Source: Candidatus Saccharimonadota bacterium (lineage in GTDB: Bacteria > Bacteroidota > Bacteroidia > Cytophagales > Amoebophilaceae). Taken from it: a DNA stretch of 32,000 nucleotides. The DNA lies in assembly GCF_964030745.1 (NCBI RefSeq), contig NZ_OZ034918.1, positions 1,020,001 to 1,052,000 of the forward strand. Reading direction: 5' to 3'. This document shows positions 2,325-27,583 of this stretch, one piece after another. Under the pieces are notes generated by a model. That model ran no database searches and had not been told where the DNA came from. It saw only the letters and a list, made by a program, of their open reading frames with translations. A program made the translations under genes and the position numbers. The stretch's first letter is position 1, and each line of letters opens with the position of its first letter.

Positions 2325-3101
2325 TTGATCAATATGCGCTTCATAAAAAATATAGATATACAGAGCATTAAGTCTGTCAGTTTGCTAGTCCTTATGTGGG
2401 CAAGTGGTTTATGCACGATTTTAGGCTGTAGCAAGTTGCCTGTGCAGTATGGCACTCCCAAAACATCCGTGCCAGGCAATTTTGAAAGGGTAGAAAGACT
2501 AAAGCATACTTTTTTGTCTCCTATTATGGATATTAGTAAGCGATATAAGCATAAGAAGCATCTATTTTTACATGGGTTGTGCAAAAATATAGGCGCTTAT
2601 CGAGAAGGGTTGAAACTCTTATATGAGGAGAAGGAGTGGTTCGATCTATGTGTCCAATATACCTTATGGCTTTCTAAGTTTATTTATAATCACAGGAGAT
2701 CATTATCTATATTAGATGAATCTGGATATACCCCTGTACATTGGGGAGTGGAAACTTTTAATGTAAAAGAGCCGTGTGAAGCGAAGCTTTTTAAGCTGTT
2801 AATTACAGCATATAGTTTGTTATTGGCTGAAGGTGTTGGTGTAAATGTTAAAAGTTCCAAGGGAGATACGCCTTTGCATTTAGCATCGTTTCGTCCACAT
2901 ATCCTAGAACTGGTTAAGATGTTACTGGATGGTGGTGCTGATGTAAATGCTCCAGATCAGAACGGGGCTACTGTTTTAGATCTAGTAAAAATGTGTAACC
3001 CAGAAAATTGTAACCGGGAGGAAGTAGTTCAGCTACTATTGGCCTATGGTGCTACATCGAATAATCAGGATGGACAGTTAAAAGTTCAAATATGGCTTTA
3101 A
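2325..3101 (+). CDS. ankyrin-repeat lipoprotein
   Basis: Signal peptide plus lipobox (LLVLMWASGLCTILGCS). C-terminal ANK repeats (DESGYTPVHWGV; SKGDTPLHLAS...MLLDGGADVNAPDQNGATVLDLV; VVQLLLAYGA). The true start is probably the ATG at 2334 (MRFIKN...). Confidence 0.75.
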   Translation: MINMRFIKNIDIQSIKSVSLLVLMWASGLCTILGCSKLPVQYGTPKTSVPGNFERVERLKHTFLSPIMDISKRYKHKKHLFLHGLCKNIGAYREGLKLLYEEKEWFDLCVQYTLWLSKFIYNHRRSLSILDESGYTPVHWGVETFNVKEPCEAKLFKLLITAYSLLLAEGVGVNVKSSKGDTPLHLASFRPHILELVKMLLDGGADVNAPDQNGATVLDLVKMCNPENCNREEVVQLLLAYGATSNNQDGQLKVQIWL

Positions 3102-3106
3102 AAAAT

Positions 3107-3739
3107 GTATCTATTCACGCCTGTGGTTGGGGCCCCTTATCTCCTTCGATAAAAAGTCTGGCCCGATAGTAAATAGCTGAATCGATATCTTTCTCAGCGA
3201 GAAAATCGTAAACTCAGCCCGCAAGCGGGCTTCAAACAGACGATTTTCTAATCCGCTGAAAAAGATATCGCTCAGGTGTTCGTGTTTTACTAGAGCGCCA
3301 TTTTTTATCGAAGGAGACGTGGGGCTGATAATGATAAGAAAATCTATTGTCGCCGCCGATAAAGGAATGCGGCGCTTCAGTAAAGCGGAAGTTTTTAAAC
3401 AATCTATTGTTCAGCGGATTAGAAAAACAGTCTGTTTGCAGCCCACAAAGTGGGCAAGTTCTGTTTTTCCCGCTGAACAATAGATTGTTTCATTGCCTTT
3501 ACTGCGCGCCAAATCTTTTATCGGTGGCGAAAAGTACTGCATATACCAATACTCCATGTAAAAAATGCTGTTCTATTTAATAGTCAATAATATATCACTC
3601 TTAAGTTGACGCTATTGTGTGTTCAATGCTATGGCGGTGAGGTCCCCCACTTTTTACCGAGGGCTTGATTTTTGTCCACTTCTTTATCAAGAAAAAAGTG
3701 GAATACAATTCATTACTAACCAGTGACGTGAGTAGATAC
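3107..3739. mobile_element. 633-bp non-coding MITE-like element, copy E1 (modules A-reversed, B, C), 8-bp TSD TAAAAAAT
   Basis: Termini are GTATCTATTCACG (3107) and CGTGAGTAGATAC (ends 3739), 12/13 inverted. Identical 8-bp direct repeats TAAAAAAT lie at 3099-3106 and 3740-3747. The interior is homologous to repeats at 10.0, 14.2, 15.9, 24.1, 27.2 and 30.8 kb. It has no credible ORF. Confidence 0.8.
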
Positions 3740-3818
3740 TAAAAAATAGTTTCCATTCAATACGTTATCTCTTTGTACTTAATTTGGAAACAATGAAACC
3801 TGAATCCTTACTCAGCTA

Positions 3819-4004
3819 CTAAAACAGCAGCGGAATAGCCTTTTTTATCAAAGGCTTCAATAAAAATTTCATTAGCATAGCTAAGAAGCCCCCCTGCACA
3901 GAACCATATAACTCTTTTTTGACTTCTTTTTTAGCTTTAAAAAAGCACCATAGGGAAAGTCCACCAAAAAGTGTTCCGCCACATAGTAATAATTTATTAG
4001 ACAT
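3819..4004 (-). CDS. small hypothetical membrane protein
   Basis: 61-aa ORF with one hydrophobic helix and a basic C-terminus, lying downstream of the gyrB/YtxH-like genes on the same strand. No family recognised. Confidence 0.3.
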   Translation of the reverse strand: MSNKLLLCGGTLFGGLSLWCFFKAKKEVKKELYGSVQGGFLAMLMKFLLKPLIKKAIPLLF

Positions 4005-4087
4005 AAGTTATAGAAATTAAATATAGGGGCTCAGGGGAACACAAAGAACGATGGATCCCCTGTGCTTCCCTATTGCATTCCACTAGC

Positions 4088-4294
4088 CTAATGCAAATAG
4101 TCCTTAACTGTGCTTTTAACAGCATCAATTGCTTCTTCAGCTTTTTTAGAAGATGATTGCACACAACCAGAAAACTGCTTAGCCTTATTTTGGATTGTTT
4201 TGGTTACTCTTTTTTTAGTGTCGTCGCAGACCAACACCCCCAATATGGCGCCTAATACTAGGCCAAATCCTAGGTAATATACATTTTTAGACAT
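4088..4294 (-). CDS. YtxH-like small membrane-anchored protein
   Basis: 68 aa. An N-terminal Gly-rich helix (LGFGLVLGAILGVLV) is followed by a charged helical tail, as in YtxH/general-stress small proteins. Confidence 0.45.
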   Translation of the reverse strand: MSKNVYYLGFGLVLGAILGVLVCDDTKKRVTKTIQNKAKQFSGCVQSSSKKAEEAIDAVKSTVKDYLH

Positions 4295-4450
4295 AATTTT
4301 ACTTTGATATAAAGCGTTGAATCGTTAAATATATATGAAACAATTTATTGAATTGAGACAACTCAATGCAATGAAACCATACCAATATACTATAAAAAGA
4401 TAAAATATAGTAGCCTCTAATAGATCCCTATGTGCAAAATTGGTTGAAAA

Positions 4451-6448
<1,998 letters not shown>

Positions 6449-6464
6449 TTAGCCGAAAGGAACA

Positions 6465-6761
6465 CTATATTTCAACTATTGTCATGCCAGCCATACAGTA
6501 TATGGGGCTTTGGAGGACTATCTCTTTTACCAAGGGGTGATGGTGTAAATAGTCCCGTATGGCGCTACGCAAAATCCCCTTTCCCTGCCCATGGATGATT
6601 TTTAATCGGCTGTGGCCCAATAACAAGGAACGATCTAGAAATTTTTCCAATGCCAACAGTGCTTGGGCTTTGTTGAGACCATGCAGATCAAGTATTGGAT
6701 CAGCTTGTTTAGATGGCAGACGCATCGTAATAGCATTCGATGACTTAGCTTTTTTCTGCAT
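6465..6761 (-). CDS. Smr domain protein
   Basis: 98 aa. LDLHGLNKAQALLALEKFL...LKIIHGQGKGILRSAIRDYL matches the Smr/MutS2 C-terminal domain signature (LDLHG...HG.G.G.L). Confidence 0.8.
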   Translation of the reverse strand: MQKKAKSSNAITMRLPSKQADPILDLHGLNKAQALLALEKFLDRSLLLGHSRLKIIHGQGKGILRSAIRDYLHHHPLVKEIVLQSPIYCMAGMTIVEI

Positions 6762-6786
6762 AGATGGAGGAAATTGTTGTTAAAAA

Positions 6787-7173
6787 CTAAAGAGCGTGTG
6801 CTTCTAAATCTAGATATACTTTTTCATATACTTCAAGTGACCTCTCTAAAGAATCTTCTAGATAATATTTTACACTCTCCTTAAAAGCTTGCGGATCTAC
6901 CGCGTATAGTGCTAGTATTTTTTGATGGTGTTGGTGGCGCAATATATCTTGCTCTTTTTGAGGATAGGAGCTATGTAGCAACCAATTATTGAGTAGCTCT
7001 AGATCTCTTACCACATGGATAAAAACTTCTTCATGGATGATCGTAGTGGGTGGATGTTTGGTAGAGATCATTGTAAATGAGGCCTTACCTACCCCATATA
7101 ATACCAATGAGGCTAAAAGAATAGTAGCTATTTTGTTCATGCTGTAAACAAGAGGTATGATAATGTATTTCAT
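6787..7173 (-). CDS. hypothetical secreted protein (possibly DUF4296-like)
   Basis: 128 aa with an N-terminal signal-like helix. The C-terminal helical region ...DPQAFKESVKYYLEDSLERSLEVYEKVYLDLE resembles Bacteroidota DUF4296 as I remember it. Weak. Confidence 0.4.
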   Translation of the reverse strand: MKYIIIPLVYSMNKIATILLASLVLYGVGKASFTMISTKHPPTTIIHEEVFIHVVRDLELLNNWLLHSSYPQKEQDILRHQHHQKILALYAVDPQAFKESVKYYLEDSLERSLEVYEKVYLDLEAHAL

Positions 7174-7286
7174 GTAAAGTTAAGTAAAAACCCCTATATT
7201 GGCCATACTATTCCCTAGAAGGTAACTAGGTTTTTCAGGAGCCTCATTACATGTTTGTATATAAGGAATGATAGCGCATATAAAGA

Positions 7287-8189
7287 TTGATTATGGAAGT
7301 TTTCCCAAGAAAAATTCTTTCTGTTATTCACAAATTCAACTTTGATAAAAGCATCAACTACCACTTGTCTATTAATATAGGCTATGGCTTTATTAAAATA
7401 TGTTGCATAGAACGGACGACACAAGAATGCTTGCTATTGGGTATATATGCACTTCCGTTGGATAAAAACCACGTCAGCTATATCAAAAGTTTGGAGCAAT
7501 TTTATAATCAAGATTTTTTTTTGATTAAAAAGAATTGGCGTTCTGTTACCTTATCTATCTCCAATCAAAAGTTTACCATTTTGCCCCATTTGTTGCTCAG
7601 TACAAAGGATTTATTTACCTATATGCATGTTGCTTGTGGTGTAGACCCCACTGATGAAGTCATCTCTTTTACCCATGCATTGGCAAAAGTGTCTGTTGTA
7701 TTTGCAGAAAATGCTGCTGTCTTGGATTGGTTTAGAAAGCGCTACACTGGTAGTAATTTTCATATTATCCATCAGGTTAATGCCATTATAGAGGGATACC
7801 AAATAGAATGCGTATCTAAGCCAGAATTATTTGTTTGGTTGGCGGAGGACTATTTGTATATCATTGTCCATAACAAAAAAAAATTACTTTACTGTAACCT
7901 TTTTACTTATAAATCATCTGATGATTTTTTAAGTTATTTATCGGCTGTCATCCAGGTTATGCACTTAGAACGCACCTCTTGTGCCTTATTGGTAGGTGGA
8001 TGCATTGAAAAAGGGTCACCTGCCTATCGTCAGTTAAAGGCATATATTCCCAAGACCACCTTAAAAACTAAGATTAATTTCTTACACGCAAATCCATATG
8101 TTTTTAAAAAAAGTGGTACCTCGCCTATGTTGTATTTTGATCTGATCAGCAGTTTTCTTTGTCATACCCATAGTAGCGCATGGCAATAG
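7287..8189 (+). CDS. hypothetical protein (possibly DUF3822-like)
   Basis: 300-aa ORF. The ATG at 7293 is more likely than the TTG at 7287. The N-terminal string HLSINIGYGFIKICCIE resembles the LSIR...DGFSF start of Bacteroidota DUF3822 proteins. This is a recollection-level call. Confidence 0.4.
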   Translation: MIMEVFPRKILSVIHKFNFDKSINYHLSINIGYGFIKICCIERTTQECLLLGIYALPLDKNHVSYIKSLEQFYNQDFFLIKKNWRSVTLSISNQKFTILPHLLLSTKDLFTYMHVACGVDPTDEVISFTHALAKVSVVFAENAAVLDWFRKRYTGSNFHIIHQVNAIIEGYQIECVSKPELFVWLAEDYLYIIVHNKKKLLYCNLFTYKSSDDFLSYLSAVIQVMHLERTSCALLVGGCIEKGSPAYRQLKAYIPKTTLKTKINFLHANPYVFKKSGTSPMLYFDLISSFLCHTHSSAWQ

Positions 8190-8247
8190 TGCGCTTGCAA
8201 AACTCGATTGTCGGTAAAATCTATTATATTTAGACAAATATGTCTGT

Positions 8248-8916
8248 ATGTCCCTTATTTTAAGCATTGAAACCGCTACAGCTGTTTGCTCTGTTGCATT
8301 GCATGACGCCGGTAAGCTTATAGCGCATACCGAACTTTTCATGGAACGATCTCATTCGGAGTATTTAGTGTCCATTATAGAAGATTTACTAAAAAATAGC
8401 TGTTATGATCGTAAATCGCTGGCTGCTATAGCCATTTCTAGTGGACCTGGTTCCTTCACTGGGTTGCGGATTGGTACTGCAGTAGCTAAAGGCCTTTGCT
8501 ATGGACTAGATATTCCACTTATCTCGGTTGGCACGCTAGAAGCTATGGCCTATGGCATGCGTCCATTTGTTGATGGGAATATGCTATTATGCCCGACTAT
8601 TGATGCGCGACGCAACGCTATTTATACCCTTATAGCTGACCAATCAGGGAAGCTGCAACGACCTGCACATGTGGCGTTGTTGGATAGTAAGGAATATCAT
8701 GCTGCACTTCCGGGTGGCCCTTTGCTTTTTTTTGGGGATGGGGTATTAAAATGTAAACCATTCCTGGTCGACTATCAGCATATTCAATTTATAGAACAGG
8801 TAGTCCCTTCTGCTATACAGATAGGTTATTTAGCCTTTGAGCAGTTTCAGCAACAGCTTTGGAAAAATATTGCCAGCTATACACCTTATTATTTAAGCCA
8901 GTTTCAAGAAAAATAA
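8248..8916 (+). CDS. tsaB: tRNA threonylcarbamoyladenosine biosynthesis protein TsaB (YeaZ)
   Basis: 222 aa. ILSIETATAVCSVAL, HSEYLVSIIEDLL and AISSGPGSFTGLRIGTAVAKGL are typical TsaB strings. Confidence 0.85.
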   Translation: MSLILSIETATAVCSVALHDAGKLIAHTELFMERSHSEYLVSIIEDLLKNSCYDRKSLAAIAISSGPGSFTGLRIGTAVAKGLCYGLDIPLISVGTLEAMAYGMRPFVDGNMLLCPTIDARRNAIYTLIADQSGKLQRPAHVALLDSKEYHAALPGGPLLFFGDGVLKCKPFLVDYQHIQFIEQVVPSAIQIGYLAFEQFQQQLWKNIASYTPYYLSQFQEK

Positions 8917-9100
8917 AGGAATATGTAATATTTATTTGGTTTTTTTTTAGATTAACCTTAATATTGCTGCTATTAAGTCATTTGGTGGGGCGGTTTGGCC
9001 TTGTAATTTAAGACCAGCTTGTTTTTCACATATAATTAATAGAAGTTTATAGTAAGTAAATAAAAGGAGTTCATAACACACACAATTTTTTAATATTATT

Positions 9101-9938: not shown

Positions 9939-10010
9939 GGCCCGTTCGTCTAGGGGTTAGGACGTCAGGTTTTCATCCTGGAAACAGGGGTTCGATTCCC
10001 CTACGGGCTA
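9939..10010 (+). tRNA. tRNA-Glu (anticodon UUC)
   Basis: Cloverleaf read by hand: acceptor GGCCCGT/ACGGGCT (G1-U72 wobble), D arm TTCGTCTAGGGGTTAGGAC, anticodon stem-loop TCAGG-TTTTCAT-CCTGG (TTC), T arm AGGGG-TTCGATT-CCCCT. It is colinear with E. coli tRNA-Glu. CCA is not encoded. Confidence 0.85.
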
Positions 10011-10029
10011 CGTTTTCAACTCACCATTG

Positions 10030-10453
10030 GTATCCATTCATCACTGTGGTTACGTTTTTCTGAAAAAGCAAATAGCTAACCAAGTACCAGCCTCGCGTCT
10101 CCTTCGATAAAAAAATGGCGCTCTAGTAGACCTCTTGCAAAACCTACTTTGTGATGAGCAATTTTTAGGAGAAGTGTAGTCGAGCACCGCAGAATACTTA
10201 ATGTATTTGAGGAGCATAGACAAGCTTCGACACCAAAATTGCCATTAGAAATAGGTTTTGCAAGAGGTCTAGTAAAACACTAACAGGTGAGCGATATATT
10301 TTCAGCGGATTAGAAAATCGTCTGTTTGAAGCCCGCTTGCGGGCTGAGTTTACGATTTTCCCGCTAAAAAACATATCGATTCATCTATTTACTATCGGGC
10401 CAGATTTTTTATCGAGGGAGATAAGGCGGACAGCCAGAGGCGTGAATGGATAC
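10030..10453. mobile_element. 424-bp MITE-like element, copy E2 (module A with nested 141-bp MITE), 8-bp TSD CACCATTG
   Basis: Termini are GTATCCATTCA (10030) and TGAATGGATAC (ends 10453). A perfect 8-bp direct repeat CACCATTG lies at 10022-10029 and 10454-10461. The element starts 20 bp downstream of tRNA-Glu. Confidence 0.85.
10129..10269. mobile_element. 141-bp nested MITE (N) inside E2
   Basis: 17-18 bp perfect TIR GACCTCTTGCAAAACCTA / TAGGTTTTGCAAGAGGTC, flanked by TAGTA at 10124-10128 and 10270-10274. Copy E1 carries the uninterrupted site (3287-3300). Confidence 0.8.
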
Positions 10454-10513
10454 CACCATTGCTGCCCATTTAACTTATTCAAGGCGCTTTCCTAAAAACA
10501 GAAGCGATTCTTT

Positions 10514-11955: not shown

Positions 11956-12753
11956 GTAATGTTTATAGATCATATTCCCATGGATGATGCATTCGACCCA
12001 TTCACCAGTTCTATTCAGCCTAATCCACTATTTGACAGGGCTTCATTTTACTATAAAAGCTGCTCTTCTACCAATGACATGGCTCAAAAACAGCTGCTAC
12101 ATGCAGCAGAAGGAACCCTTTTTATTGCAGAACATCAGTATAAGGGGCGAGGACAACGGGGCAACAGTTGGACATCTGAAGCGGGCAAAAATCTTCTTTT
12201 TTCGTTTATCCTATATCCAGAATGGTTAACAGTAGATGCAGTGTTTGCCTTGAACATTATTACTAGTTTAACCATTTATGATATAGTAGTAGCCTATTTG
12301 CCCAAGGAACTTTCTATAAAATGGCCCAATGATATCTATTATGCAGATCAGAAACTGGGTGGTATATTGATTGAAACCCAAATAGGAGCGTGCCATACCA
12401 TAAAGGCAGCGGTAATCGGTGTTGGTTTAAACGTCAATCAGCTCCATTTTGAATCTTCAACATGCACTTCTTTAGCCATACAAAGGGGAGCTTCCTTGAA
12501 TAGACCACTGCTGCTTGCTCATATCATGGATGCTTTTGGTGGCTATTATGCGCAGTTGCAAAATAGTCTAAACTTGCTTTGGAAAAAGTATACCGATGTA
12601 CTCTACCGCAACAGAGGATTTCACACCTTTGCAACCATACATGGCCCATTAGAAGCGCGTATTGTAACCGTGAATAGGCTAGGGGAGTTGGTGATAGCGA
12701 CCCGCAATGGTAGACAGTATTGCTACAAAGCTAAAGAGATTGCTTTTGTATAG
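11956..12753 (+). CDS. birA: biotin--[acetyl-CoA-carboxylase] ligase (class I, no HTH)
   Basis: GRGQRGNSWTSEAGKNLLFS biotin-binding loop and KWPNDIYYADQKLGGILIE. The ATG at 11956 is preferred over the listed TTG at 11938, but the start is uncertain. Confidence 0.85.
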   Translation, partial: VMFIDHIPMDDAFDPFTSSIQPNPLFDRASFYYKSCSSTNDMAQKQLLHAAEGTLFIAEHQYKGRGQRGNSWTSEAGKNLLFSFILYPEWLTVDAVFALNIITSLTIYDIVVAYLPKELSIKWPNDIYYADQKLGGILIETQIGACHTIKAAVIGVGLNVNQLHFESSTCTSLAIQRGASLNRPLLLAHIMDAFGGYYAQLQNSLNLLWKKYTDVLYRNRGFHTFATIHGPLEARIVTVNRLGELVIATRNGRQYCYKAKEIAFV

Positions 12754-12977
12754 TACAGTCTGGAGGTAAGGGCATAGGTGTTATAGGTCGTTTGTAGTTT
12801 CCTTAAGGCTATCTACTACTGCATGTAGAAGTAAAATTTGTTTTATACTAGATAAAGTTTTAAACTTGGAAAATTTGTTTGTTGCGTTAGTAGGTGCCTT
12901 ACCTATTTTACTTTGGATAATAGTCGCTACTATAGGGTCTATTTATGTTGCGTCATTTATTATAATTGAGACTAAAA

Positions 12978-14129
12978 ATGGATAATTACACGATATTTAC
13001 TTCTGAGTCTGTATCTGAAGGACATCCTGACAAGATGGCGGACCAAATTTCTGACGCGATTCTCGATGCGATTTTAGCACAAGATAAATATGCACGTGTT
13101 GCATGTGAAACACTTGTTAAAACCGGAATGGTATTAGTTGCTGGTGAAGTGACGACAGAGGCGTGGGTTGATATAGAGCAAATTGTTAGAGAAACGGTGA
13201 AAGAAATTGGTTACAACAGCTCTTCTATAGGTTTTGATTGGGAATCTTGTGCTGTTATATTAGCGATTGGTAAGCAATCATCTGATATTGCACAAGGCGT
13301 AGATAAGTTAGATAAAGCGGAGCAAGGTGCGGGTGATCAAGGTATGATGTTCGGGTATGCGAGTAATGAGACGGATGTACTAATGCCAGCACCTATCACC
13401 TATGCGCATAGGCTTATGGAGCGACAGGCAGCGCTGCGAAAAAATAAGATTGTAGATTGGTTGCGGCCTGATGCAAAAAGCCAAGTGACACTGCGTTATA
13501 GAGATGGGAAGCCTATTGCAGCTGAAACCATTGTGGTTTCTACGCAGCATGCGCCTGAGATTTCCTATGCTAAATTAAAAGAGGCTATTGTTGAAGAAAT
13601 TATAAAACCTGTATTTCCAGTGGAATGGTTAACGAAAACGACTTTCCATATCAATCCAACTGGACGTTTTGTTATTGGCGGACCGCTAGGAGACACAGGG
13701 TTGACTGGGCGTAAAGTTATTGTGGACACTTATGGCGGCATGGCTAGACATGGCGGTGGCTGTTTCTCGGGTAAGGATCCCAGTAAAGTGGATCGTTCTG
13801 CAGCGTATGCGGCACGTTATGTTGCAAAAAATATCGTTGCCGCAGGTTTAGCCGATCGTTGTGAATTGCAAATTTCCTATGCGATTGGTGTTGTGCAACC
13901 GACATCTATTACCATTAATACATTTGGCACAGGTAAACTGTCGAATGAGCGCATTATTGAACTGATTCATCAACATTTTGATTTGAGACCGTATGGACTT
14001 ATTGAAATGCTTAATTTACTAAGACCTATTTATAAACTAACGGCAGCCTATGGTCATTTTGGACGTGAGCAGGGAGATTTTCCTTGGGAAACAACAGACA
14101 AAATAGAACTATTACGCTCAGCCCTTTAA
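12978..14129 (+). CDS. metK: S-adenosylmethionine synthetase (proteobacterial-looking)
   Basis: 383 aa from the ATG at 12978 ([11 protein letters not shown]...). [65 protein letters not shown] and [19 protein letters not shown] are present. It is near-colinear with E. coli MetK as I remember it. Confidence 0.95.
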
Positions 14130-14157
14130 AACAAGGTGTTTGCATATGAAAAACAGG

Positions 14158-14598
14158 TTGTTTAAAAACTTCCGCTTTACTGAAGCGTCGCATTCCTTTA
14201 TCGGCGGCCACAATAGCTTTTCTTATCATTGTCAGCCCCGCGTCTCCTTCGATAAAAAATGGCGCTCTAGTAGACCTCTTGTAAAACCTACTTTGTGATG
14301 AGCAATTTTTAGGAGAAGTGTAGTCGAGCACCGCAGAATACTTAATGTATTTGAGGAGCATAGACAAGCTTCGACACCAAAATTTCCATTAGAAATAGGT
14401 TTTGCAAGAGGTCTAGTAAAACACTAACAGGTGAGCGATATATTTTTAGCGGATTAGAAAATCGTCTGTTTGAAGCCCGCTTGCGGGCTGAGTTTACGAT
14501 TTTCCCGCTAAAAAACATATCGATTCATCTATTTACTATCGGGCCAGACTTTTTATCGAAGGAGATAAGGGGACCCAACCACAGGCGTGAATAGGTAC
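14158..14598. mobile_element. 5'-truncated MITE-like element, copy E4 (one arm of module B, module A with nested N)
   Basis: Homologous to E1/E2. The right terminus CGTGAATAGGTAC ends at 14598. No GTATC left terminus is present, and homology fades about 30 bp after the metK stop codon. The left boundary is approximate. Confidence 0.7.
14273..14413. mobile_element. 141-bp nested MITE (N) inside E4
   Basis: Same TIRs and same TAGTA flanks as the 10129-10269 copy. Confidence 0.8.
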
Positions 14599-14663
14599 CG
14601 TGAAGATTTGAGCACCGGGGTCGATCTGCAAATTACCAGCAGAAGTAGAGTTGCCAGAGCAGT

Positions 14664-15338
14664 CTATCGGCTATTGGTGCCTAGCAATCCCTCTAAAGTA
14701 TAAGCATTATCCAAACAATAACTACCTATTTGAGTGCGGCATAAGCCATGGAGGTACCCCCCAACACCTAATTTTTCTCCCAAGTCATAGGCAAGCCGCC
14801 GAATATAGGTTCCCTTGCTACAAACTACCTTAAAAGTGATGGAGGGTAGTGCTATTGACATAATCGAAAAATCGTGAATTGTAATCGAGCGCGGCTGAAG
14901 CCTAGCTTCTTCTCCTTTCCTAGCCATTTTATATGCCCTTTTTCCATCCACTTTAACCGCTGAATAGATAGGGGGTATTTGCATCAGAGGTCCTACAAAG
15001 GTAGCTGCAGCAGCCTTTACCATCTCTTCAGTGATGTGCTCATAGCTAGATAGACTATTAAAAGGTGTTTCTAAATCCATAGACGGCGTTGTCTTGCCAA
15101 TTACAATTTGACCCGTATAGACCTTATCCAATGCCTGCAAGCTACTGATTTTTTTAGTTTCCCGGCCGCTGCATAGCAAAAGCAATCCTGTAGCCAGAGG
15201 ATCTAAGGTGCCCGCATGGCCTATTTTTTTTATTTGTAAGCCATAGCGAACCTTTTTGACCACATCAAAGGAAGTCCAACCCAAAGGCTTGTTTACCATG
15301 AAAATGGCTTCAGAAAAGTCACCTTGTGGTCCATGCAT
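14664..15338 (-). CDS. truB: tRNA pseudouridine(55) synthase
   Basis: 224 aa. KPLGWTSFDVV and GHAGTLDPLATGLLLLC (catalytic Asp motif). Confidence 0.9.
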   Translation of the reverse strand: MHGPQGDFSEAIFMVNKPLGWTSFDVVKKVRYGLQIKKIGHAGTLDPLATGLLLLCSGRETKKISSLQALDKVYTGQIVIGKTTPSMDLETPFNSLSSYEHITEEMVKAAAATFVGPLMQIPPIYSAVKVDGKRAYKMARKGEEARLQPRSITIHDFSIMSIALPSITFKVVCSKGTYIRRLAYDLGEKLGVGGYLHGLCRTQIGSYCLDNAYTLEGLLGTNSR

Positions 15339-15373: not shown

Positions 15374-15901
15374 ATGTATAACCATACATTGGCTCAATTT
15401 ACCTATTTTAAATTAAAAATGAGAACAGTTCTATTTGAAGAAGGCATGTTTGCATTTGATCCATTGTTCATAGACCATTTTAGCCCTACCAACGCAATAG
15501 CCACATGCTACATGGTATGTAATGAAAAAGTCTTGTTATTGAAAAGAGAGGATGGCGCAATTTTAGGCAATAGGTGGTGCATGGCTGGTGGAAAATTAGA
15601 AAAAAACGAAACGCCACTCCAAGCGGTCATAAGAGAGGTCGCAGAAGAAGTAGGTATTATACTCCTTCCAGAGCAGGTTGCTTTTATTCAAACCATCTAT
15701 ATAAGGATCTTTGCATCAAAACAGGATTATATACTGCATCTATTCAAGGCAGTTTTCTCTGGATCAGAACCATCTGACTATAAAGTTACCCTAAATCAGG
15801 AACATACTGATTACCTATGGGTTGATCTACAAGCAGCAAAGCAACTCAACCTAATACCAGGTGGTTATGAAGTATTGGAATACATGCAGCACCACCATTA
15901 G
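15374..15901 (+). CDS. NUDIX hydrolase
   Basis: Nudix box GGKLEKNETPLQAVIREVAEEVGI (GX5EX7REUXEEXGU). The start may be the ATG at 15419. Confidence 0.8.
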   Translation: MYNHTLAQFTYFKLKMRTVLFEEGMFAFDPLFIDHFSPTNAIATCYMVCNEKVLLLKREDGAILGNRWCMAGGKLEKNETPLQAVIREVAEEVGIILLPEQVAFIQTIYIRIFASKQDYILHLFKAVFSGSEPSDYKVTLNQEHTDYLWVDLQAAKQLNLIPGGYEVLEYMQHHH

Positions 15902-15902: not shown

Positions 15903-15985
15903 TTATCTATTCACACCTGTGGCTGGTCCCCATATCTCCTTCGATAAAAAGTCTGGTCCGATAGTAATCAATCAACTGAATGATG
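15903..15985. repeat. solo terminal arm (~80 bp) of the MITE family
   Basis: TTATCTATTCACACCTGTGGCTGGTCCCCATATCTCCTTCGATAAAAAGTCTGGTCCGATAGTAA aligns with the first ~70 nt of E1 (3107-). The rest of the element is absent. Confidence 0.65.
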
Positions 15986-16275
15986 AAGGATATACTGCGT
16001 TGCATTTGGCAGCGCAATATGGTTTTACAACCATAATAAATATGTTACGAAGTGCCAAAGGCATTTTAGTCAATTTGAAAAATAATAATGGTAATACCCC
16101 GCTTCATATGACAGCAGCCTTTAATGCGCTTACAAACGTAGTGGAAGCATTAATGAAATTCCCAGGGATTTTACACAATGAGAAAAATAAAGACGGCGAC
16201 ACACCACGTGATCTAGCAAACGATCAATATCATGAAGAAGTAGTCGAGTGGCTTGATAATTATAATAAAATATAA
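15919..16275 (+). CDS. ankyrin-repeat protein (short, probably a remnant; GTG start inside the MITE arm)
   Basis: ANK repeats DEGYTALHLAAQYG, NGNTPLHMTAAFNA and DGDTPRDLA. The first ~20 codons (MAGPHISFDKKSGPIVINQL) are encoded by MITE-arm sequence. Confidence 0.65.
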   Translation: MAGPHISFDKKSGPIVINQLNDEGYTALHLAAQYGFTTIINMLRSAKGILVNLKNNNGNTPLHMTAAFNALTNVVEALMKFPGILHNEKNKDGDTPRDLANDQYHEEVVEWLDNYNKI

Positions 16276-16313
16276 AAGCACTGTTTATAGCTGCAGGGCA
16301 GTTCTTTAGCCCA

Positions 16314-16949
16314 TGTGAAGTTTCAACAGAAACGCTACAACAAGTGATTTATAAAAATATAAAATTATATGTAGTAGTTGATGTGACAAAGGTGGGTAAT
16401 CAGTGCTATCAGTTTACTGCTGTATATGATTGTACAAGACTTAGAGTGTTAAGGCTATATCCTAATAAAACCGCTAAAAATTCAGTTTTATTTTTGCATG
16501 AAATCTTAGGGCATTTTCCTTTCCCGATTCAGCGTGTTCAATCTGACTGGGGAACTGAATTTTTTAATGCTTCCTTTCAAGAAGAGTTAATGGTTCACTT
16601 TATAAAGTTCAGACCCATTAAACCTAGCAGTCCGCACCTAAACGGAAAGGTAGAAAGATCACAACAAACCGATAAAGTAGAGTTTTATAATTTGCTAAAT
16701 CTTAAAGATGCTGCGATTAACTTACCAAAACTTCTTGCAGAATGGGAATATTTTTACAATCATAAACGGCCGCACTCCGCGTTAGGAGGCAAAACTCCTT
16801 GGGAAAAATTTAAAGAACTAGAACCAAAAACATCTATTCAACCAGATGTCACTCAAATGTACTGGGATAGTAATGAGCATATTTTACCAAGGTCTAGCAA
16901 ATACCTAAAATGGAAAAGAAAAATGTCTCACTTCTGTTGAAACTTCACA
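16314..16949. mobile_element. IS481-like element, internal-deletion derivative (636 bp)
   Basis: 18-bp perfect inverted repeats TGTGAAGTTTCAACAGAA (16314-16331) and TTCTGTTGAAACTTCACA (16932-16949) enclose only the catalytic core of an rve-type transposase. No clear TSD. Confidence 0.7.
16344..16940 (+). pseudogene. N-terminally truncated DDE (rve) transposase, IS481-like
   Basis: Integrase core strings VVDVTKVG, SDWGTEFF, HLNGKVERSQQT and YNHKRPHSALGGKTPWEKF. The HTH/N-terminal ~100+ aa are missing and the ORF opens with GTG 12 nt after the left IR. Confidence 0.7.
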
Positions 16950-17047: not shown

Positions 17048-18718
17048 ATGATGCGTAAGATAGATGCACTACCGATTGGCTACTCAGATGTTAAATCAGT
17101 GATTGAAACAGGTTATTATGTAGATAAAACCAGGTATGCACAAGATTTAATAGAAAAAAGAAATCCTATCTTCATAGCCCGGCCTAGGCGATTTGGCAAG
17201 TCTCTATTTATCAATACACTAGCTACCATATGCAATGGAGAAGAAGCAGTATTTAAAGATTATCATATAGGTAAGCCAAAAAACGGATATGAGTGGAAGA
17301 AATATCCTATTATTAGGCTGGACCTATCTAGGTTGACCAACGACACACCAGAGGAATTAAAAACCTCCATCAAAGGCGCCCTAAAAAAAATAGCATTACT
17401 ATATGCACTAGAAATAGAGGACCATACTATAAAAGACACTTTAGAGAATTTAGTCTTGCAGTTGGTTAATTTAACCCGCACTAGTTCCAATAAAGAGATC
17501 AGATCATCTAATTATGCCTCCAAAATAGTAGTATTAATAGACGAGTATGATGCCCCTATTGTTCATCTAACCAAAGGCTCCGATCTAGAGCAATCCAATA
17601 TTAAAGTCATGAAAGATTTCTTTATGACTTTGAAGTCACTAAATGACTACTTTCAACTCACTTTTATCACTGGCGTAAGCAAATTCAGTTTATCTGATGT
17701 ATTTTCAGGTGCCAATCATTTAGACGATATTACTATTTCCAAAGATGCTGATGCCATGTTTGGCTATACGCAAGAAGAAATATTATCCACTTTTTCAGAT
17801 AATATAGATACTATTGGTTTACAATGGAGTAAAGAAGAGGGTAGACAAGTAACAGATCTAGAAGTTATGAACCGCATAGCAACCTATTACAATGGATATA
17901 GATTTCATAAGGATGGCGTATCTGTTTATAATCCTTGGTCTACTTTAAAATTTCTTAAGCATGGCGAACTAGCCAACTACTGGTACGAGTCAGGCAGTCC
18001 AAGCTTACTCATTAATCAGATGCTAACAGATCCTGATAGGTTTGATATTAATATGGAAAGCCTCCAAATAGAGGCCGCTAGAGAAGACTTAATGTACACA
18101 GAAAGTAGAAATGAGATTAGTTTAAAGTCTCTGATGTTTCAAACAGGATATCTAACCATTGACCGTTATGATGAATCTACTGGTCTATATACATTAAAGT
18201 TCCCTAATAGAGAAATAGAAGCATCTTTTCAGAAAAGTATACAATCTAGCTTAGAAAAAAGCGTCAAAGATTACTTTATACACGAGCGCGATACCATCAG
18301 ACAAGCATTATCTGATAAAAAAGTTGAAACTTTTATAGATCACATCAATACAGTTTTTGCCACACTTCCTTATTACCTGGATACCAAACAAGAAAAACAA
18401 TACCATAGCAATTTACATATGTTGCTGCAAGGATTAGGCTTTCTAGGTGGTAGGAAAATGCATATGTATAGTGAATCCGCTTCTAGCCAAGGCAGATCAG
18501 ATATTGTGCTAGAATTAGGAACAGCCATATATATCATAGAGCTTAAGTATAAATCCACTGGTCAAATAGCCTTAGACCAAATCAAATCAAACGGGTATTA
18601 TAAGCCTTACTTACTTAGACAAAAAGCCCTTATACTTTTAGGTCTTAACTTTAATGAGGAAACCAGAATGATAGATAACTGGGCGTATGAAATAGTAAAC
18701 AAAGAAACTTCAGCCTAG
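17048..18718 (+). CDS. AAA-ATPase-like / PD-(D/E)XK nuclease family protein
   Basis: 556 aa. N-terminal FIARPRRFGKSLFINTL (P-loop of the 'predicted AAA-ATPase' family), VVLIDEYD (Walker B-like), and C-terminal GRSDIVLE...IYIIELKYK (D...E.K nuclease motif). Confidence 0.8.
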   Translation: MMRKIDALPIGYSDVKSVIETGYYVDKTRYAQDLIEKRNPIFIARPRRFGKSLFINTLATICNGEEAVFKDYHIGKPKNGYEWKKYPIIRLDLSRLTNDTPEELKTSIKGALKKIALLYALEIEDHTIKDTLENLVLQLVNLTRTSSNKEIRSSNYASKIVVLIDEYDAPIVHLTKGSDLEQSNIKVMKDFFMTLKSLNDYFQLTFITGVSKFSLSDVFSGANHLDDITISKDADAMFGYTQEEILSTFSDNIDTIGLQWSKEEGRQVTDLEVMNRIATYYNGYRFHKDGVSVYNPWSTLKFLKHGELANYWYESGSPSLLINQMLTDPDRFDINMESLQIEAAREDLMYTESRNEISLKSLMFQTGYLTIDRYDESTGLYTLKFPNREIEASFQKSIQSSLEKSVKDYFIHERDTIRQALSDKKVETFIDHINTVFATLPYYLDTKQEKQYHSNLHMLLQGLGFLGGRKMHMYSESASSQGRSDIVLELGTAIYIIELKYKSTGQIALDQIKSNGYYKPYLLRQKALILLGLNFNEETRMIDNWAYEIVNKETSA

Positions 18719-22385: not shown

Positions 22386-22575
22386 ACATATTTATTATTA
22401 ATTGCATGTGGGAAATGATAAACACAAACTGTAATATATTATAATTATATTATACTTTATCAAAATCAAAGTAAGTAAATATGTAAATTAATGTATAGCT
22501 TATCCGTTACCTATTAGCCTTAGCATGGTACTTTAAGTTCTATACAAGCGTAACCACCTTTTTTATCTTATTGCA

Positions 22576-23943
22576 ATGGAGTTTTTCCCTATAGAGTTTT
22601 ACCAACAGGAAGCAGACAAATGGATTAATCCATATCAGGAAGGATATGAAAAACCATTATTGGACAAACAGATACAACAATCTTATTTGAAAAATTTACA
22701 GGAACGCTTTTTTGGTACTGCATCTCCTTGGGATCAAGACTACGTTAAACAGGTTCTACAAACAGACATCTGGGCTAGTGAAAAAAAGCAGCTTACAATA
22801 TTTTCTAATCAGGATGATCTGTCGCAATCCAAATGGTATGGCCTTAACTTTAGACCTTATCCACACAAAAAGATACAAGATATAGCCGATACAATTCCAT
22901 TAGACGAACTGAAAATATTATCCTTTCATAAAGAAAACAGGGCAATAACAATTAAAAATTTAACAGGAAGAAGCCTACCTACAACAGATATTTATGTACG
23001 CAGCATTATTCCGGGTTATGGCTATCCGCTTGACAAACTACAAGCCTCTTCTCTGTTTATTGGTACCCCTATTTATGTTATAAATCAAACGAAAGATAAA
23101 CGTTGGTCCCTTGTTATAACACCAGACTTTATTGTATGGGTTGAAAGCGATGGGATAGCCTATACCAATGACAACTTTATTGAAACATGGAGATCTATTG
23201 CAAAAGAAAAGCTTGCTGCAATTATACAAACAGACACAGCTTTAGTAAATCAACAGGGAAGATATTTAGCAACAGCCTATATCGGTGCATTGTTTCCAGC
23301 ACGTAGTGCTATAATGGAAAAACTGATTTTGTCTGTACCTATAGCTGATAAAGATGGAAATGCCTTGTTATCTGATGTGGTAGTTAACTCAACGCAAGCG
23401 GCATATATCCCCATTAGTTCATCTCCAAGAAATTTTTCTCAATTAATAAATAGCTTAAAAGGGAGGCCTTATGGTTGGGGAGGGTTATCATACTATAACG
23501 ATTGTTCTGCAGAGCTTAAATGTCTTTTCCTTCCTTTTGGTATTTGGTTGCCTCGTCAATCATACGACCAGATGAAAGCAACAGCAGTGGTTGACTTAAG
23601 TACTTCTACACCAAAGGAACGTCTTACTTATTTAATTGAGCATGGAAATCCATTTTTTACCATAATGTACATTAAAGGACATATCTTTTTGTACTTAGGG
23701 AATTTCCCGCAAGTTGGCCAAAAATTACCTATGGTAATGAGTTACCAAAATATTTGGGGGCTATCTAATCTAACAAAAGATAAAATATCCATAATTGGAG
23801 AAGCTGTTTTTCTTCCGCTGCTACTTAACTATCCAGAAGATGCTAGTCTTAACTCACTCTTAAGTAGAGATACATTTCAAGTAGGTCATTTGAATCAGTT
23901 ACCACCAGGCTATCCTAAACTTATTCTCCCATATGTACTCTAA
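22576..23943 (+). CDS. NlpC/P60-family cell-wall peptidase with N-terminal SH3b-like region (YkfC-like)
   Basis: C-terminal catalytic signature GRPYGWGG..YNDCSAELKCLF..GIWLPRQSYDQ ... IKGHIFLYLG (Cys/His). No signal peptide. An in-frame stop 42 nt upstream of the ATG limits N-terminal extension. Confidence 0.8.
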   Translation: MEFFPIEFYQQEADKWINPYQEGYEKPLLDKQIQQSYLKNLQERFFGTASPWDQDYVKQVLQTDIWASEKKQLTIFSNQDDLSQSKWYGLNFRPYPHKKIQDIADTIPLDELKILSFHKENRAITIKNLTGRSLPTTDIYVRSIIPGYGYPLDKLQASSLFIGTPIYVINQTKDKRWSLVITPDFIVWVESDGIAYTNDNFIETWRSIAKEKLAAIIQTDTALVNQQGRYLATAYIGALFPARSAIMEKLILSVPIADKDGNALLSDVVVNSTQAAYIPISSSPRNFSQLINSLKGRPYGWGGLSYYNDCSAELKCLFLPFGIWLPRQSYDQMKATAVVDLSTSTPKERLTYLIEHGNPFFTIMYIKGHIFLYLGNFPQVGQKLPMVMSYQNIWGLSNLTKDKISIIGEAVFLPLLLNYPEDASLNSLLSRDTFQVGHLNQLPPGYPKLILPYVL

Positions 23944-24378
23944 AGTTATCTTTGCTGTTAAGAGTAGAAAATAACTGATCATTAAAGTAGTAGGTCTTCT
24001 AAAAAATAAAATACTATTAATTTGCATTAAATTTAGTCCTACGTTTTGGATTAGATCTAATTTTTAAGACTGATAGTCAATATGAATAAAAATTCATATA
24101 TGCTACTTTAAATAAAATAGAATATAGGAAAAATAAGTAGATTTGTATCTATTCACGTCACTGGTTAATAATGAATTGTATTCCACTTTATCCTTTATAA
24201 AAAAGTGGGCAAAAAATCAAGCCTTCGGTAAAAAGTTGGGGGCCTCACCCTCTTACAGGGGCATTTTTCTACTATGGCCATAGCGTTTGAACGCATACGC
24301 TACCTTTGGCTGAAAAAGCAAGTGGCTAATCCATTACCAGCCGCAGCGTCTCCTTCGATAAAAAATGGCGCTCTAGTA

Positions 24379-24519
24379 GACCTCTTGCAAAACCTACTTT
24401 GTGATGAGCAATTTTTAGGAGAAGTGTAGTCGAGCACCGCAGAATACTTAATGTATTTGAGGAGCATAGACAAGCTTCGACACCAAAATTTCCATTAGAA
24501 ATAGGTTTTGCAAGAGGTC
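24379..24519. mobile_element. 141-bp nested MITE (N) inside E3
   Basis: Same TIRs and TAGTA flanks as the other N copies. A second, partial copy (right 75 bp) lies at 27200-27274 within the duplicated segment. Confidence 0.8.
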
Positions 24520-24642
24520 TAGTAAAACACTAACAGGTGAGCGATATCTTTTTCAGCGGATTAGAAAATCGTCTGTTTGAAGCCCGCTTGCGGGCTGAGT
24601 TCACGATTTTCCCGCTGAAAAAGATATCGATTCAGCTATTTA
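24445..24642 (+). repeat. left copy of ~198-bp direct duplication flanking the IS5-family element
   Basis: TACTTAATGTATTTGAGG...CAGCTATTTA is repeated at 27200-27396 with only about 3 differences. The two copies share variants absent from E2/E4 (GAGTTCACG, CCGCTGAAAAA). Confidence 0.8.
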
Positions 24643-25124
24643 GTCGGCCCTGAAATATTATATATTTATTTGTTTGTGAATATAAAAACCCGTATATTAT
24701 AATATATATAATAACCATTTTTAGAGTTTTTTTGTATAAAACCTTGCAAAATAGGGATGAAATCTAAGAGGATAAATCATTCTTGTTGTAGGCTTTTTGA
24801 GCAACGCTTATCTGGGATTCTTAATCCCCAACACGCCTTATTTCAGTTAGCTGATTCCATTCCTTGGCAATCCTTAGAATCAGATTTAGATCGCAGCTTT
24901 AGCTATGGACCCGGTCAACCTCCTTTACCTATTCGTTTGATTGTAGGTCTACTCATTATCAGTCATATGTACCAAGTTTCTGATGAGCAAGTAGTTTCTA
25001 GATGGGTAGAAAATCCTTATTGGCAATACCTTTGTGGCTATGATTATTTTCAGATTAAGGCAGCTTGTCACCCTAGTTCATTAACTCGTTGGCGTCAAAG
25101 ATTGGGAGCAGAAGGTCTTAATAA

Positions 25125-26121
25125 CCTGAGTTCTGGATTAGACTTATTGTAAATCAGTCATATATATGTTAGTTATAGAAGGTTTTTTTTTCTTTTAGTC
25201 CATAAGCTGTGATTCCAGCGATCAAATTGACTAAAAAATTAGGTATACTTCTGTGCCTGGAGTGTTCTATCTGGCTAATATTTTTAAGCTGATCTATAAT
25301 TGTTTCAATAATAGATCGCTTTCTAAGCATCAGTTTATCCCAGAGTGGCATAAATGCATTTTTCATATTTTTTCTGATTTGAGTAATCAGTTCCATACCT
25401 TTATCTATCAGTTTCTCAAATAAATCTTTACTCAAGTAGCCTTTATCGCTGAACACTTTACCCATCAAATTTTTACATAAATTTTCTACAGGGAATCTAT
25501 CATTAACTTTACCTGTGGTAAGTGAAAAGTTCATAATTTCTCCTAAATCATTGACTATCAAGTGTAATTTCATCCCAAAAAACCACCCGGTGCTGGTTTT
25601 ACCTTTAGTAGCAATCGATTTAAAAACCTTATGAGCATAGGATCTTTTGACATTACAAACTTTGATGGCTGTTGCATCCATAAAGTAGCAACCTGTTTTT
25701 GTTTTAGAGAGACTTTGTGTAAAAAAGTACATTGGTACTAAGGATCTCTGAATCAGTGCTATAAATCTAGTATAGCTTACTAGATTACTAAAGTCATTAG
25801 AATGAAACTGCTGTAGATGAGCATAATATGACTTAAAGTTTCTAAAGCCAATTACATGAAAGGCAATTAATATGGTCATTATTTCGCTCAAAGACAACGA
25901 ACAAGTTCTAGTAGGTTTTCTTGTAGAGTGGGGTAACAGTTGACTTTCCATATAAGGCATAAATTTTTTAAGAATTCATCGACAGCGAAATATATTTCGA
26001 CTAATTTTGTTACATTCATAATGGGCTCCTTTGTTAATTTGGTTATTGTTTTCAACTCCAAATTTAAAACACAAAGGGGCTCTTTTAAACGCATTCTTAA
26101 ATTTCTAATCCAGAACTCAGG
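25125..26121 (-). mobile_element. IS982-family insertion sequence (997 bp), 7-bp TSD TTAATAA
   Basis: 18-bp perfect IRs CCTGAGTTCTGGATTAGA (25125-25142) and TCTAATCCAGAACTCAGG (26104-26121). Direct repeats TTAATAA lie at 25118-25124 and 26122-26128. Confidence 0.85.
25169..26019 (-). CDS. IS982-family transposase in two frames (-1 shift needed at an A6 run)
   Basis: The N-terminal 20 codons start at the ATG at 26019 (MNVTKLVEIYFAVDEFLKN). The body is the 263-aa ORF 25169-25960 (SLSEIMTILIAFHVIGFRNFKSYY, DATAIKVC, GWFFGMKLHLIVNDLGEI, DKGY). The frames overlap at TTAAAAAAT (T-run 25964-25969 on the plus strand). Confidence 0.7.
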
Positions 26122-27199
26122 TTAATAAGATCTTATCGATGACTATACAATTAGCCATTAAAAAAAAAGTAGTCTGCCCAAAAGAACTTGAAAAAGTGAT
26201 ATCCGACACTACTGTAATGGAGAAAAATATTCGCTATCCAACTGATTCTTCGTTGCTTAATAAGGCTAGACAAAAACTAGTGGCTATAGCTAAGAAAACA
26301 GGCGTTAAACTCCGTCAAACCTACCAACGTCTAGGCCCAGCTATCAAACGTAAAGTAGATGGCTATGCACATGCTAAACAGTTTAAACGTTTAGCCAAAG
26401 GCGTTAAAACATTAAAAAACTATCTTGGTCGGGTGGTAAGAGATGTAGAACGCTCTATGCAATCGTGTGATGAAGCAATACGCACCCAGTTTAGACATCT
26501 GCTTTCTATAAGTAAAAGGATTATTAACCAATCAAAAAAAAGTAAAAATAAAGTCTATAGTATCCATGAACCTGCTGTTTACTGCGTAAGTAAAGGTAAG
26601 GCTTTAAATCCCTATGAGTATGGTTGTAAGGTGCAATTTACGCTCACCCATAAACAAGGCTTGATTGTATCAACGGAAGCTTTAGATCCTAATGAATATG
26701 ATGGACATACCTTGCATAGAAGTTTATTACAAGCAGAAAAACTATCTGGTACTCAGGTAAAACACCTCTTCGTAGACAGGGGTTACAGAGGTCATAATAT
26801 ACCTAATAGTCAATGTAATATATTTATAAGCGGCTCTAAAAGAGGTATAACGCCTAGTCTCAAAAAAGCACTAAAAAGAAGATCTGCTATTGAACCACAT
26901 ATTGGTCATATGAAATCTGATGGTAAGTTAGCGGTTAACTACTTGAAAGGAATATTGGGAGACAAACTCAATGCTATTCTATGTGCTATTAGCCATAATC
27001 TACGCCTTATTACAAGAAAAACATTCCTAATACCCACCTAATCAGGTAAAATAAAACCTATAGCACTAAGATGCTTTATCCTGAACTAACGTATACAGAT
27101 ACCAGGATTAGAATAGATACAGAACATGAAAAAATTGAAATGGGGCAGGTGATTATTTTTTTAATAAATAACTTGAAGTATGAATACTTCAGGGCCGAC

Positions 27200-27396
27200 T
27201 ACTTAATGTATTTGAGGAGCATAGACAAGCTTCGACACCAAAATTTCCATTAGAAATAGGTTTTGCAAGAGGTCTAGTAAAACACTAACAGGTGAGCGAT
27301 ATATTTTCAGCGGATTAGAAAATCGTCTGTTTGAAGCCCGCTTGCGGGCTGAGTTCACGATTTTCCCGCTGAAAAATATATCGATTCAGCTATTTA
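27200..27396 (+). repeat. right copy of ~198-bp direct duplication flanking the IS5-family element
   Basis: See 24445-24642. It continues seamlessly into the right arm and terminus of E3 (27397-27458). Confidence 0.8.
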
Positions 27397-27583
27397 CTAT
27401 CGGGCCAGACTTTTTATCGAAGGAGATAAGGCGGCCAGCCAGAGACGTGAATAGATGCGTAAATTTCTTGGTTATCAGCGTATTACACATAATATATCTA
27501 AAACATTTGTTAAACAAATGCAAATGTTTACATATTAATATAAATCAATAACTCTCGTTATTAGACAATACTTTTGGAATAAA

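Follow-up and report, generated by a model that had tools for sequence, protein, structure and literature searches.

Among the small palindromic repeats of bacteria, pneumococcal BOX elements (boxA-boxB-boxC) and the bacterial interspersed mosaic elements (BIMEs) of enterobacteria combine a few hairpin modules in varied ways, are intergenic and are strongly structured. The Correia elements (CREE) of Neisseria and the Rickettsia palindromic elements (RPEs) are orphan-like small palindromic mobile repeats of host-adapted or intracellular bacteria, for which we know of no cognate transposase, and repetitive extragenic palindromic (REP) elements are short palindromes whose 5' tetranucleotide is conserved and of the GTAG type, their genome also carrying a RAYT gene. 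MITEs (miniature inverted-repeat transposable elements) usually measure less than ~300-500 bp. In maternally inherited endosymbionts the first MITEs were reported in 2022 (PMC9769881), namely MITECca01 of 240 bp and MITECca02 of 174 bp, AT-rich derivatives of the insertion sequence (IS) ISCca4 (IS982) that were reported to be unique to the Cardinium strain cOegib (PMC9769881, Halter et al. 2022). Here we describe a family of repeats with GTATC ends in a 32-kb stretch of DNA, the window, from the genome of the Cardinium endosymbiont icPhiSpin1, whose host is the beetle Philonthus spinipes. These repeats very probably constitute a MITE-like family of non-autonomous DDE-type transposons.

The icPhiSpin1 genome comprises 1,093,165 bp and is listed as closed in a 2025 review, in which its mobile elements were not analysed. 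The window is AT-rich (33-43% G+C along its length) and contains housekeeping genes, one tRNA-Glu, ankyrin genes and four IS types.

Termini, target-site duplications and interiors

Seven loci of the family were counted in the window, of which three are two-ended copies (E1, E2 and E3) and one is a truncated copy designated T14 (Table 1). A preliminary description of this DNA had proposed that E1, E2 and E3 are non-coding elements with terminal inverted repeats (TIRs) and modular interiors that had transposed with 8-bp duplications. This core claim is supported, and the inverted termini of all three lie exactly where they had been placed. Allowing up to two mismatches, the 13-nt terminus GTATCYATTCACG is found 11 times in the window against 0.89 times expected, a number that 0 of 100 shuffles reach; the match at 15736-15748, inside a NUDIX open reading frame (ORF), is probably due to chance. 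The outer 13 nt common to both ends of the three elements read GTATCTATTCACG, and similarity reaches to ~24 nt. Alignment of the ends reveals imperfect TIRs of ~24 bp and two end types, the A-type end GTATCTATTCACGCCTSTGGYTGG, which continues after the outer 13 nt with CCTSTGGYTGG, and the C-type end GTATCTATTCACGTCACTGGTTA, which continues with TCACTGGTTA. The left end of E2, GTATCCATTCA-TCACTGTGGTTA, is of the C-type. All complete elements combine an A-type with a C-type end, a pairing that looks like the left and right inverted repeats (IRL and IRR) belonging to one parent IS. At no fewer than 10 ends in the window, repeat homology stops at one and the same nucleotide (GTATC), and some copies carry mutated tips (GCATC, GTACC and ...ACTCACG).

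Are the direct repeats around the elements true target-site duplications (TSDs)? The flanking 8-mers agree at all eight positions for E1 (TAAAAAAT/TAAAAAAT) and for E2 (CACCATTG/CACCATTG) and at seven of eight for E3 (GTAGATTT/GTAAATTT), as had been claimed for all three. From the composition of the window, an 8/8 match is expected by chance with P = 2.5e-5 and a match of at least 7/8 with P = 5.8e-4, giving a joint probability of ~4e-13; empirically, a match of 7/8 or better is found at ~7e-4 of the positions when these spacings are kept. As the three 8-mers are mutually different, they represent target duplications and are not part of the repeat, which answers the objection raised in advance that they might belong to the repeat consensus. 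The loci on either side are unique and of housekeeping character (gyrB, tRNA-Glu/radA, an NlpC/P60-family gene and an amidase gene).

The interiors are built from modules A, B and C, all three of which exist as initially proposed. A and B are imperfect palindromes of ~190-200 bp each, mutually inverted and, in a self-comparison, 73-76% identical. Read from the C-type to the A-type end, E1 has the order end-C-linker-B-A-end and E3 the order end-C-linker-42-bp piece-A-end, and E2 corresponds to the E3 layout minus C and linker, that is, to an internal deletion. The family ranges in size from 280 to 630 bp, E2 being ~280 bp long without the nested element described below. E2 had been taken for module A with an insert of ~45 bp; the insert is present as the ~42-bp piece at 10051-10092, and a separate nested TIR element of ~140 bp had been overlooked. 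The partial pieces also exist, albeit with corrected bounds (14147-14598 instead of a start at 14158, 15903-15967 instead of an end at 15985, and 30745 or 30751 to 30841 instead of a start at 30749).

Folded as single-stranded DNA, E1 reaches -142.6 kcal/mol (z = -20.9) and E2 -97.5 kcal/mol (z = -11.2), and when five A hairpins are aligned with B and with a cOegib paralogue, 13 of 36 stem pairs keep their pairing through double changes. The elements have no coding capacity of their own: E1 and E2 contain no ORF of more than 82 aa, all ORFs in E2 having at most 58 aa, and no Pfam domain was detected in the scanned MITE-internal ORFs of at least 80 aa, an 82-aa ORF in E1 and a 113-aa ORF over T14. 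The earlier statement that no plausible protein is encoded therefore holds for E1 and E2 and fails for E3, in which IS5 and IS982 transposase ORFs are found.

The assignment to DDE-type MITEs is based on the imperfect ~24-bp TIRs, a TSD of fixed 8-bp length in all three of the two-ended copies, the lack of coding capacity, the dispersed copies and the internal-deletion variants. We infer that the family was mobilised in trans, by a transposase that would bind the A-type and C-type ends and cut the target with a stagger of 8 bp, insertion of the element into this cut giving rise to the 8-bp duplications. Variants arose by 1) internal deletion, as in E2, which has the E3 layout without module C; 2) duplication and inversion of a module, as for A and B; 3) nested insertion of mobile DNA, as for the ~140-bp TIR element and for the IS5::IS982 sequence in E3; and 4) recombination or gene conversion between copies.

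Table 1. Coordinates of the repeat family, its nested elements and related features (window positions unless cOegib is indicated)
Feature	Position	Strand	Description
E1 TSD, left	3099-3106		TAAAAAAT; includes stop codon of ankyrin ORF 2325-3101
E1	3107-3739	minus (IRL to IRR)	complete, 633 bp
E1 A-type end	3107-3130		
E1 palindrome A	3131-3333		without nested insert
E1 palindrome B	3334-3534		paralogous to A, inverted
E1 linker	3535-3635		
E1 module C	3636-3715		
E1 C-type end	3716-3739		
E1 TSD, right	3740-3747		TAAAAAAT
E2 TSD, left	10022-10029		CACCATTG; 10 nt past tRNA-Glu 9939-10011
E2	10030-10453	plus	complete, 424 bp; without module C
E2 C-type end	10030-10052		GTATCCATTCATCACTGTGGTTA
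E2 42-bp piece	10051-10092		common to E3
E2 palindrome A	10093-10429		with nested element
Nested TIR element in E2	10129-10267		TIR (TA)GACCTCTTGCAAAACCTA; TAGTA at 10124-10128 and 10268-10272
E2 A-type end	10430-10453		
E2 TSD, right	10454-10461		CACCATTG
T14	14147-14598	plus	truncated copy of the E1 type, broken off in B 18 bp past metK stop
T14 half of palindrome B	14147-14226		followed by palindrome A with nested element
Nested TIR element in T14	~14273-14411		
T14 A-type end	14575-14598		GTACCTATTCACG on minus strand
Solo A-type end	15903-15967	plus	65 nt, joined to ankyrin-repeat ORF fragment 15919-16275
E3 flanking 8-mer, left	24137-24144		GTAGATTT
E3 left part	24145-24642	plus	
E3 C-type end	24145-24167		
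E3 module C	24168-24249		
E3 linker	24250-24300		
E3 42-bp piece	24301-24342		followed by palindrome A with nested element, cut at 24642
Nested TIR element in E3	~24379-24517		half copy at ~27202-27272
Foreign insertion within E3	24643-27199	plus	IS5-family element
E3 right part	27200-27458	plus	resumes inside nested element, re-runs ~200 bp of 24439-24642
E3 A-type end	27435-27458		GCATCTATTCACG on minus strand
E3 flanking 8-mer, right	27459-27466		GTAAATTT; 7/8 versus left flank
Solo module C and C-type end	30745-30841	minus	terminus at 30841 (self-comparison: 30751-30841)
Solo A-type terminus fragment	30850-30881	minus	AGCCAAAGTAGTGAATAGATAC; 8 bp from C-type terminus; missed in the preliminary description
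Solo ~140-bp element in cOegib (L005)	743-889, 4211-4310, 7853-8001, 12299-12431, 14714-14856, 15495-15631		
Convergent junctions examined	3101/4451, 10011/10514, 14129/14664, 18718/18804, 23943/27584		

Nested insertions, mosaic copies and distribution

Part of the apparent modularity of the family is due to a nested insertion and to recombination between copies. The nested ~140-bp element has TIRs of its own, which can also be written (TA)GACCTYYTTCAAAACCTATTT, with TA at both edges. In module A of E1, TAGTA occurs once and the insert is missing, so that the window itself contains a filled and an empty version of the site. Since the element occupies the identical site in E2, T14 and E3, it was acquired once by a master copy, whereupon the composite multiplied. 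Three other Cardinium lineages were compared over syntenic regions of 22 kb, one being cOegib (coordinates designated L005) and another designated L008; GyrB of icPhiSpin1 is ~92-94% identical to that of the nearest strains compared. In the cOegib region the ~140-bp element is present solo at six sites. It is an independent second small TIR family, unrelated to the GTATC-ended one, and we did not find it among the elements described in the cOegib curation paper (PMC9769881).

E3 had been described as an intact C-linker-A element. In fact it is interrupted by an IS5-family element (inverted repeat (IR) GTCGGCCCTGAA, flanks TA/TA, ORFs 24757-25152 with DUF772 and 26139-27041 with DDE), foreign sequence of ~2.56 kb that is itself split at 25124-26122 by an ISCca4-like IS982 element (IR ACCTGAGTTCTGGATTAGA, TSD TAATA, 263-aa DDE_Tnp_1_3 ORF at 25169-25960 on the minus strand), the IR of which matches the published ISCca4 IR (PMC9769881 Fig. 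S1). Moreover, ~200 bp of module A are present on both sides of the IS5 (24439-24642 and 27194-27396). Between the two, 3 of 198 nt differ, and they are each other's closest relatives; this duplication rules out simple insertion as explanation. If IS5 had inserted twice at TA-CT sites of one element, subsequent unequal exchange would explain the duplication and keep the flanks. Alternatively, two different MITE copies were joined, in which case the 7/8 flank match would be a coincidence at the ~1e-3 level. An internal piece of this IS5-family transposase gene at 30626-30738, 92% identical to 26797-26909 and inverted, abuts the solo C module at 30745-30841. Both IS5 pieces of the window touch MITE sequence, and this may reflect an insertion preference there or tolerance.

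The interior of T14 is 99% identical to E2, and its terminal ~35 nt are E1-like. The copies of the family are recombinant mosaics, and the 99% identity between the interiors shows recent copying or gene conversion. Most copies in the window are truncated, mutated at the tip or interrupted by ISs, which suggests decay, and activity possibly lies in the past. Next to the solo A-type end at 15903-15967, a 118-aa ankyrin-repeat ORF (to 16275) uses a GTG start at 15919 inside the end, and its first ~20 codons are derived from the repeat; it is thus a chimeric or truncated gene made by the element. The gene beside T14, metK (12978-14129), is located between birA and truB and is not found at that position in L008, in which truB abuts birA, or in L005, in which there is an ankyrin gene. 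The MetK of the window equals its E. coli counterpart in length and matches it strongly, with 630 bits across residues 6-382. Both G+C and GC skew are higher in the metK segment than anywhere else in the window, and the gene was possibly acquired horizontally.

Family copies are found at four of the five convergent gene junctions and at none of the four divergent ones (Fisher one-sided p ~0.04 in this small sample). Such a placement fits selection against promoter-side insertions and is typical of positions at which MITEs are tolerated.

Copies outside the window were sought with an ORF reading through an A-type end as probe. Three ORF products from the same genome, none of them from the window, contain ...TIGPDFLSKEIRGP..GVNRY, corresponding to GTGAATAGATAC, followed by unrelated flanks, and one of the three represents a cluster of three sequences. 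There are thus at least three further copies, in which homology stops at the same nucleotide (GTGAATAGATAC). No called ORF crossing a C-type end was found by the same approach. In addition, a Logan contig assembled from short reads of the same organism is broken 30 nt inside E1 and 85 nt inside E2, as would be expected of repeats present in multiple copies.

The family is restricted in its distribution. Neither GTATC termini nor intact copies are present in the syntenic regions of the three other lineages. A pattern for the apex of the A/B hairpins gave only three chance matches in 185,579 species-representative genomes and no match in metagenomes; the 20-nt terminus pattern gave 113 single matches in metagenomes, most of which come from a single conserved gut-bacterial gene, and no match resembles the modules; and E1 has no match among PLSDB plasmids. 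In cOegib the radA/tRNA-Glu spacer (L005 5715-5960), the same intergenic region that E2 occupies in icPhiSpin1, contains decayed C-like, E3-linker-like and A-like hairpin sequence devoid of GTATC tips. This relic indicates that the modules are older than the expansion in icPhiSpin1.

Parentage and competing explanations

Which transposase could have moved these elements? The IRs of the four IS types of the window, GTCGGCCCTGAAATATT for the IS5-family, ACCTGAGTTCTGGATTAGA for the ISCca4-like IS982, GGCTCTGTCCAGTTAAG for IS256 and TGTGAAGTTTCAACAGAA for the IS3/IS481-like element, were read directly and compared by eye; they are unrelated to the termini of the family, in agreement with the preliminary description. 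The IS256 element (28270-29611) encodes a 406-aa Mutator-type transposase and has the IR GGCTCTGTCC... and the 9-bp TSD CGTGATAAG, and thus differs from the family both in its ends and in the length of its duplication. Homologues of the same type in the same genome are 95-100% identical, including at least two further copies with transposases at 95-96%. This IS256 interrupts an N-acetylmuramoyl-L-alanine amidase gene, the two parts of which lie at 27584-28186 and 29598-30020. The sequence of 636 bp at 16314-16949 is bounded by perfect inverted repeats of 18 nt (TGTGAAGTTTCAACAGAA) and contains a truncated ORF with an integrase core (rve); it has the appearance of an IS3/IS481-type element that has lost internal sequence and is becoming a MITE.

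In the ISfinder family table 8-bp duplications are made by IS66, IS256, IS6, ISL3 and IS1595, and of these families only IS66 has ends that begin with GTA(A) (consensus GTAAGCG). Only GTA of the family tip GTATCTA... matches this consensus, and the 8-bp TSD length fits IS66, making IS66 parentage a weak lead taken from that table. Elements of IS6, IS256 and IS66 are catalogued in Cardinium cOegib (PMC9769881 Table 1).

Several observations weigh against a MITE-like DDE-type family. An autonomous element with matching ends was found neither in the window nor in the plasmid collection nor in the pattern scans of metagenomes and genomes, and the family may be an orphan. No empty site was recovered at the nucleotide level, as the intergenic DNA of the compared strains is too diverged to align; alignable sequence comes to within ~160 nt of E1, and beside E2 it is limited to the tRNA gene. 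A single CAGCATTG 27 nt past the tRNA-Glu of cOegib is only suggestive. Furthermore, the 633 bp of E1 are at the upper end of the usual size range of MITEs, the E1 duplication TAAAAAAT is of low complexity, and the ends of E3 could in principle derive from two copies joined by IS5 recombination, against which the 7/8 flank match counts.

In a more far-reaching reading, which is unlikely, the family would be a true orphan without cognate IS in icPhiSpin1 or any other Cardinium, and its palindromes would form a domesticated, transposon-derived mosaic repeat system under selection as bidirectional 3'-end elements (terminators or hairpins for RNA stability) between convergent genes of a streamlined symbiont genome. 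Selection on the palindromes is suggested by compensatory changes between the paralogues, namely A, B and the relic of cOegib.

The same compensatory changes between paralogous long-hairpin mosaics, together with the very strong folding z-scores, the occupancy of four of five convergent junctions and a GC-rich apex stem (GCCCGC/GCGGGC) within an AT-rich genome, would also be compatible with REP/BIME-like palindromes, spread by a Y1 transposase (RAYT, IS200/IS605-type) or retained because they serve the host, for example in terminating transcripts or stabilising mRNA between convergent genes. This is improbable. REPs, BIMEs and the PATEs derived from IS200/IS605 elements have neither TIRs nor TSDs, whereas the icPhiSpin1 elements have both, and no Y1 transposase was found in the window. 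A terminator consensus scan of the window yielded 12 hits as compared to 10.1 expected in shuffles, which is no excess. No relevant Rfam match was obtained: with Rfam 15 at the gathering score only tRNA-Glu passes, and a permissive search returned only spurious hairpin matches resembling miRNA precursors. A host function may nevertheless have been added on top of the MITE origin of the family.

It is very improbable that the repeats were left by recombination or by segmental duplication instead of transposition, with flanking 8-mers that are coincidental or part of the repeat. In favour of this are the mosaic copies, such as T14 with its E2-like interior and E1-like tip, the internal ~200-bp duplication of E3 and several copies that are cut at genes or ISs; yet homology ends at GTATC not only in at least 10 ends of the window but also in three outside it, and the flanking 8-mers, mutually unrelated and each duplicated, lie in unique housekeeping loci.

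Least probable of all, and hardly tenable, is a larger composite or autonomous transposon carrying the transposase of the family, be it E3 or the segment 15903...27458 between inverted A-type ends, for although three transposase ORFs lie between family termini in E3 and A-type ends are inverted at 15903 and 27458, these ORFs belong to nested IS5 and IS982 elements with IRs and short duplications of their own (TA; TAATA), the IS5 transposase is broken by the IS982, the ends of both are unrelated to GTATC..., the IS5 copy is flanked by TA/TA only, and the flanks of 15903 and 27458 (ACCATTAG versus GTAAATTT) do not match.

Comparison with described repeat families

The IRs of MITECca01/02 are ACGTGAATTCGGGATT / ACCTGAGTTCGGGATT, the first being that of MITECca01, and their subterminal sequence derives from ISCca4 (PMC9769881). 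They resemble the icPhiSpin1 family in host genus, in being small non-coding elements with TIRs, in their abundance between genes and inside other mobile elements, and in lineage-specific expansion. In contrast to MITECca01, the icPhiSpin1 family has GTATCTATTCACG ends, 8-bp TSDs and long, GC-richer palindromes. Membership in MITECca01/02 was rejected, as the ends differ and BLAST of the published MITECca01 against the window gave AT-rich noise only; no similarity was found between the published MITECca sequences and E1, E2, E3 or the ~140-bp element. The octamer ACGTGAAT, which is present in the MITECca01 tip and in the inner TIRs of the icPhiSpin1 family with opposite polarity, is probably a coincidence.

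The term MITE has been applied loosely to transposase fragments in a later paper (PMC12039267), and fragments of the AAA-ATPase_like/PDDEXK_9 family were flagged as 'MITE candidates' in a 2025 paper. AAA-ATPase_like + PDDEXK_9 (DUF1703) genes are multi-copy and dispersed in both strains (17048-18718 in the window; 12855-14621 and 16963-18774 in L005). No termini of the GTATC-ended family are found beside the window gene at 17048-18718.

The class of element is ordinary; of the icPhiSpin1 GTATC-ended family itself we found no earlier description in the literature. A second Cardinium strain carries at least two further small TIR families unrelated to MITECca01/02. Such elements break short-read assemblies, seed recombination, create chimeric ORFs and gather nested ISs, which is relevant for annotation and for the reconstruction of genome reduction in symbionts.

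Beyond Cardinium, the icPhiSpin1 family differs from BOX elements and BIMEs, which lack a clear signature of TIRs plus TSDs, in having both, which points to DDE-transposon mobility. With Correia elements and RPEs it shares length variants that arise by internal deletion. Correia elements, however, have TA duplications and a length of 100-155 bp as compared to the 8-bp TSDs and 280-630 bp of the icPhiSpin1 family, and RPEs are often in-frame in genes and lack a clear TSD, whereas the icPhiSpin1 elements are bounded by duplications of 8 bp.

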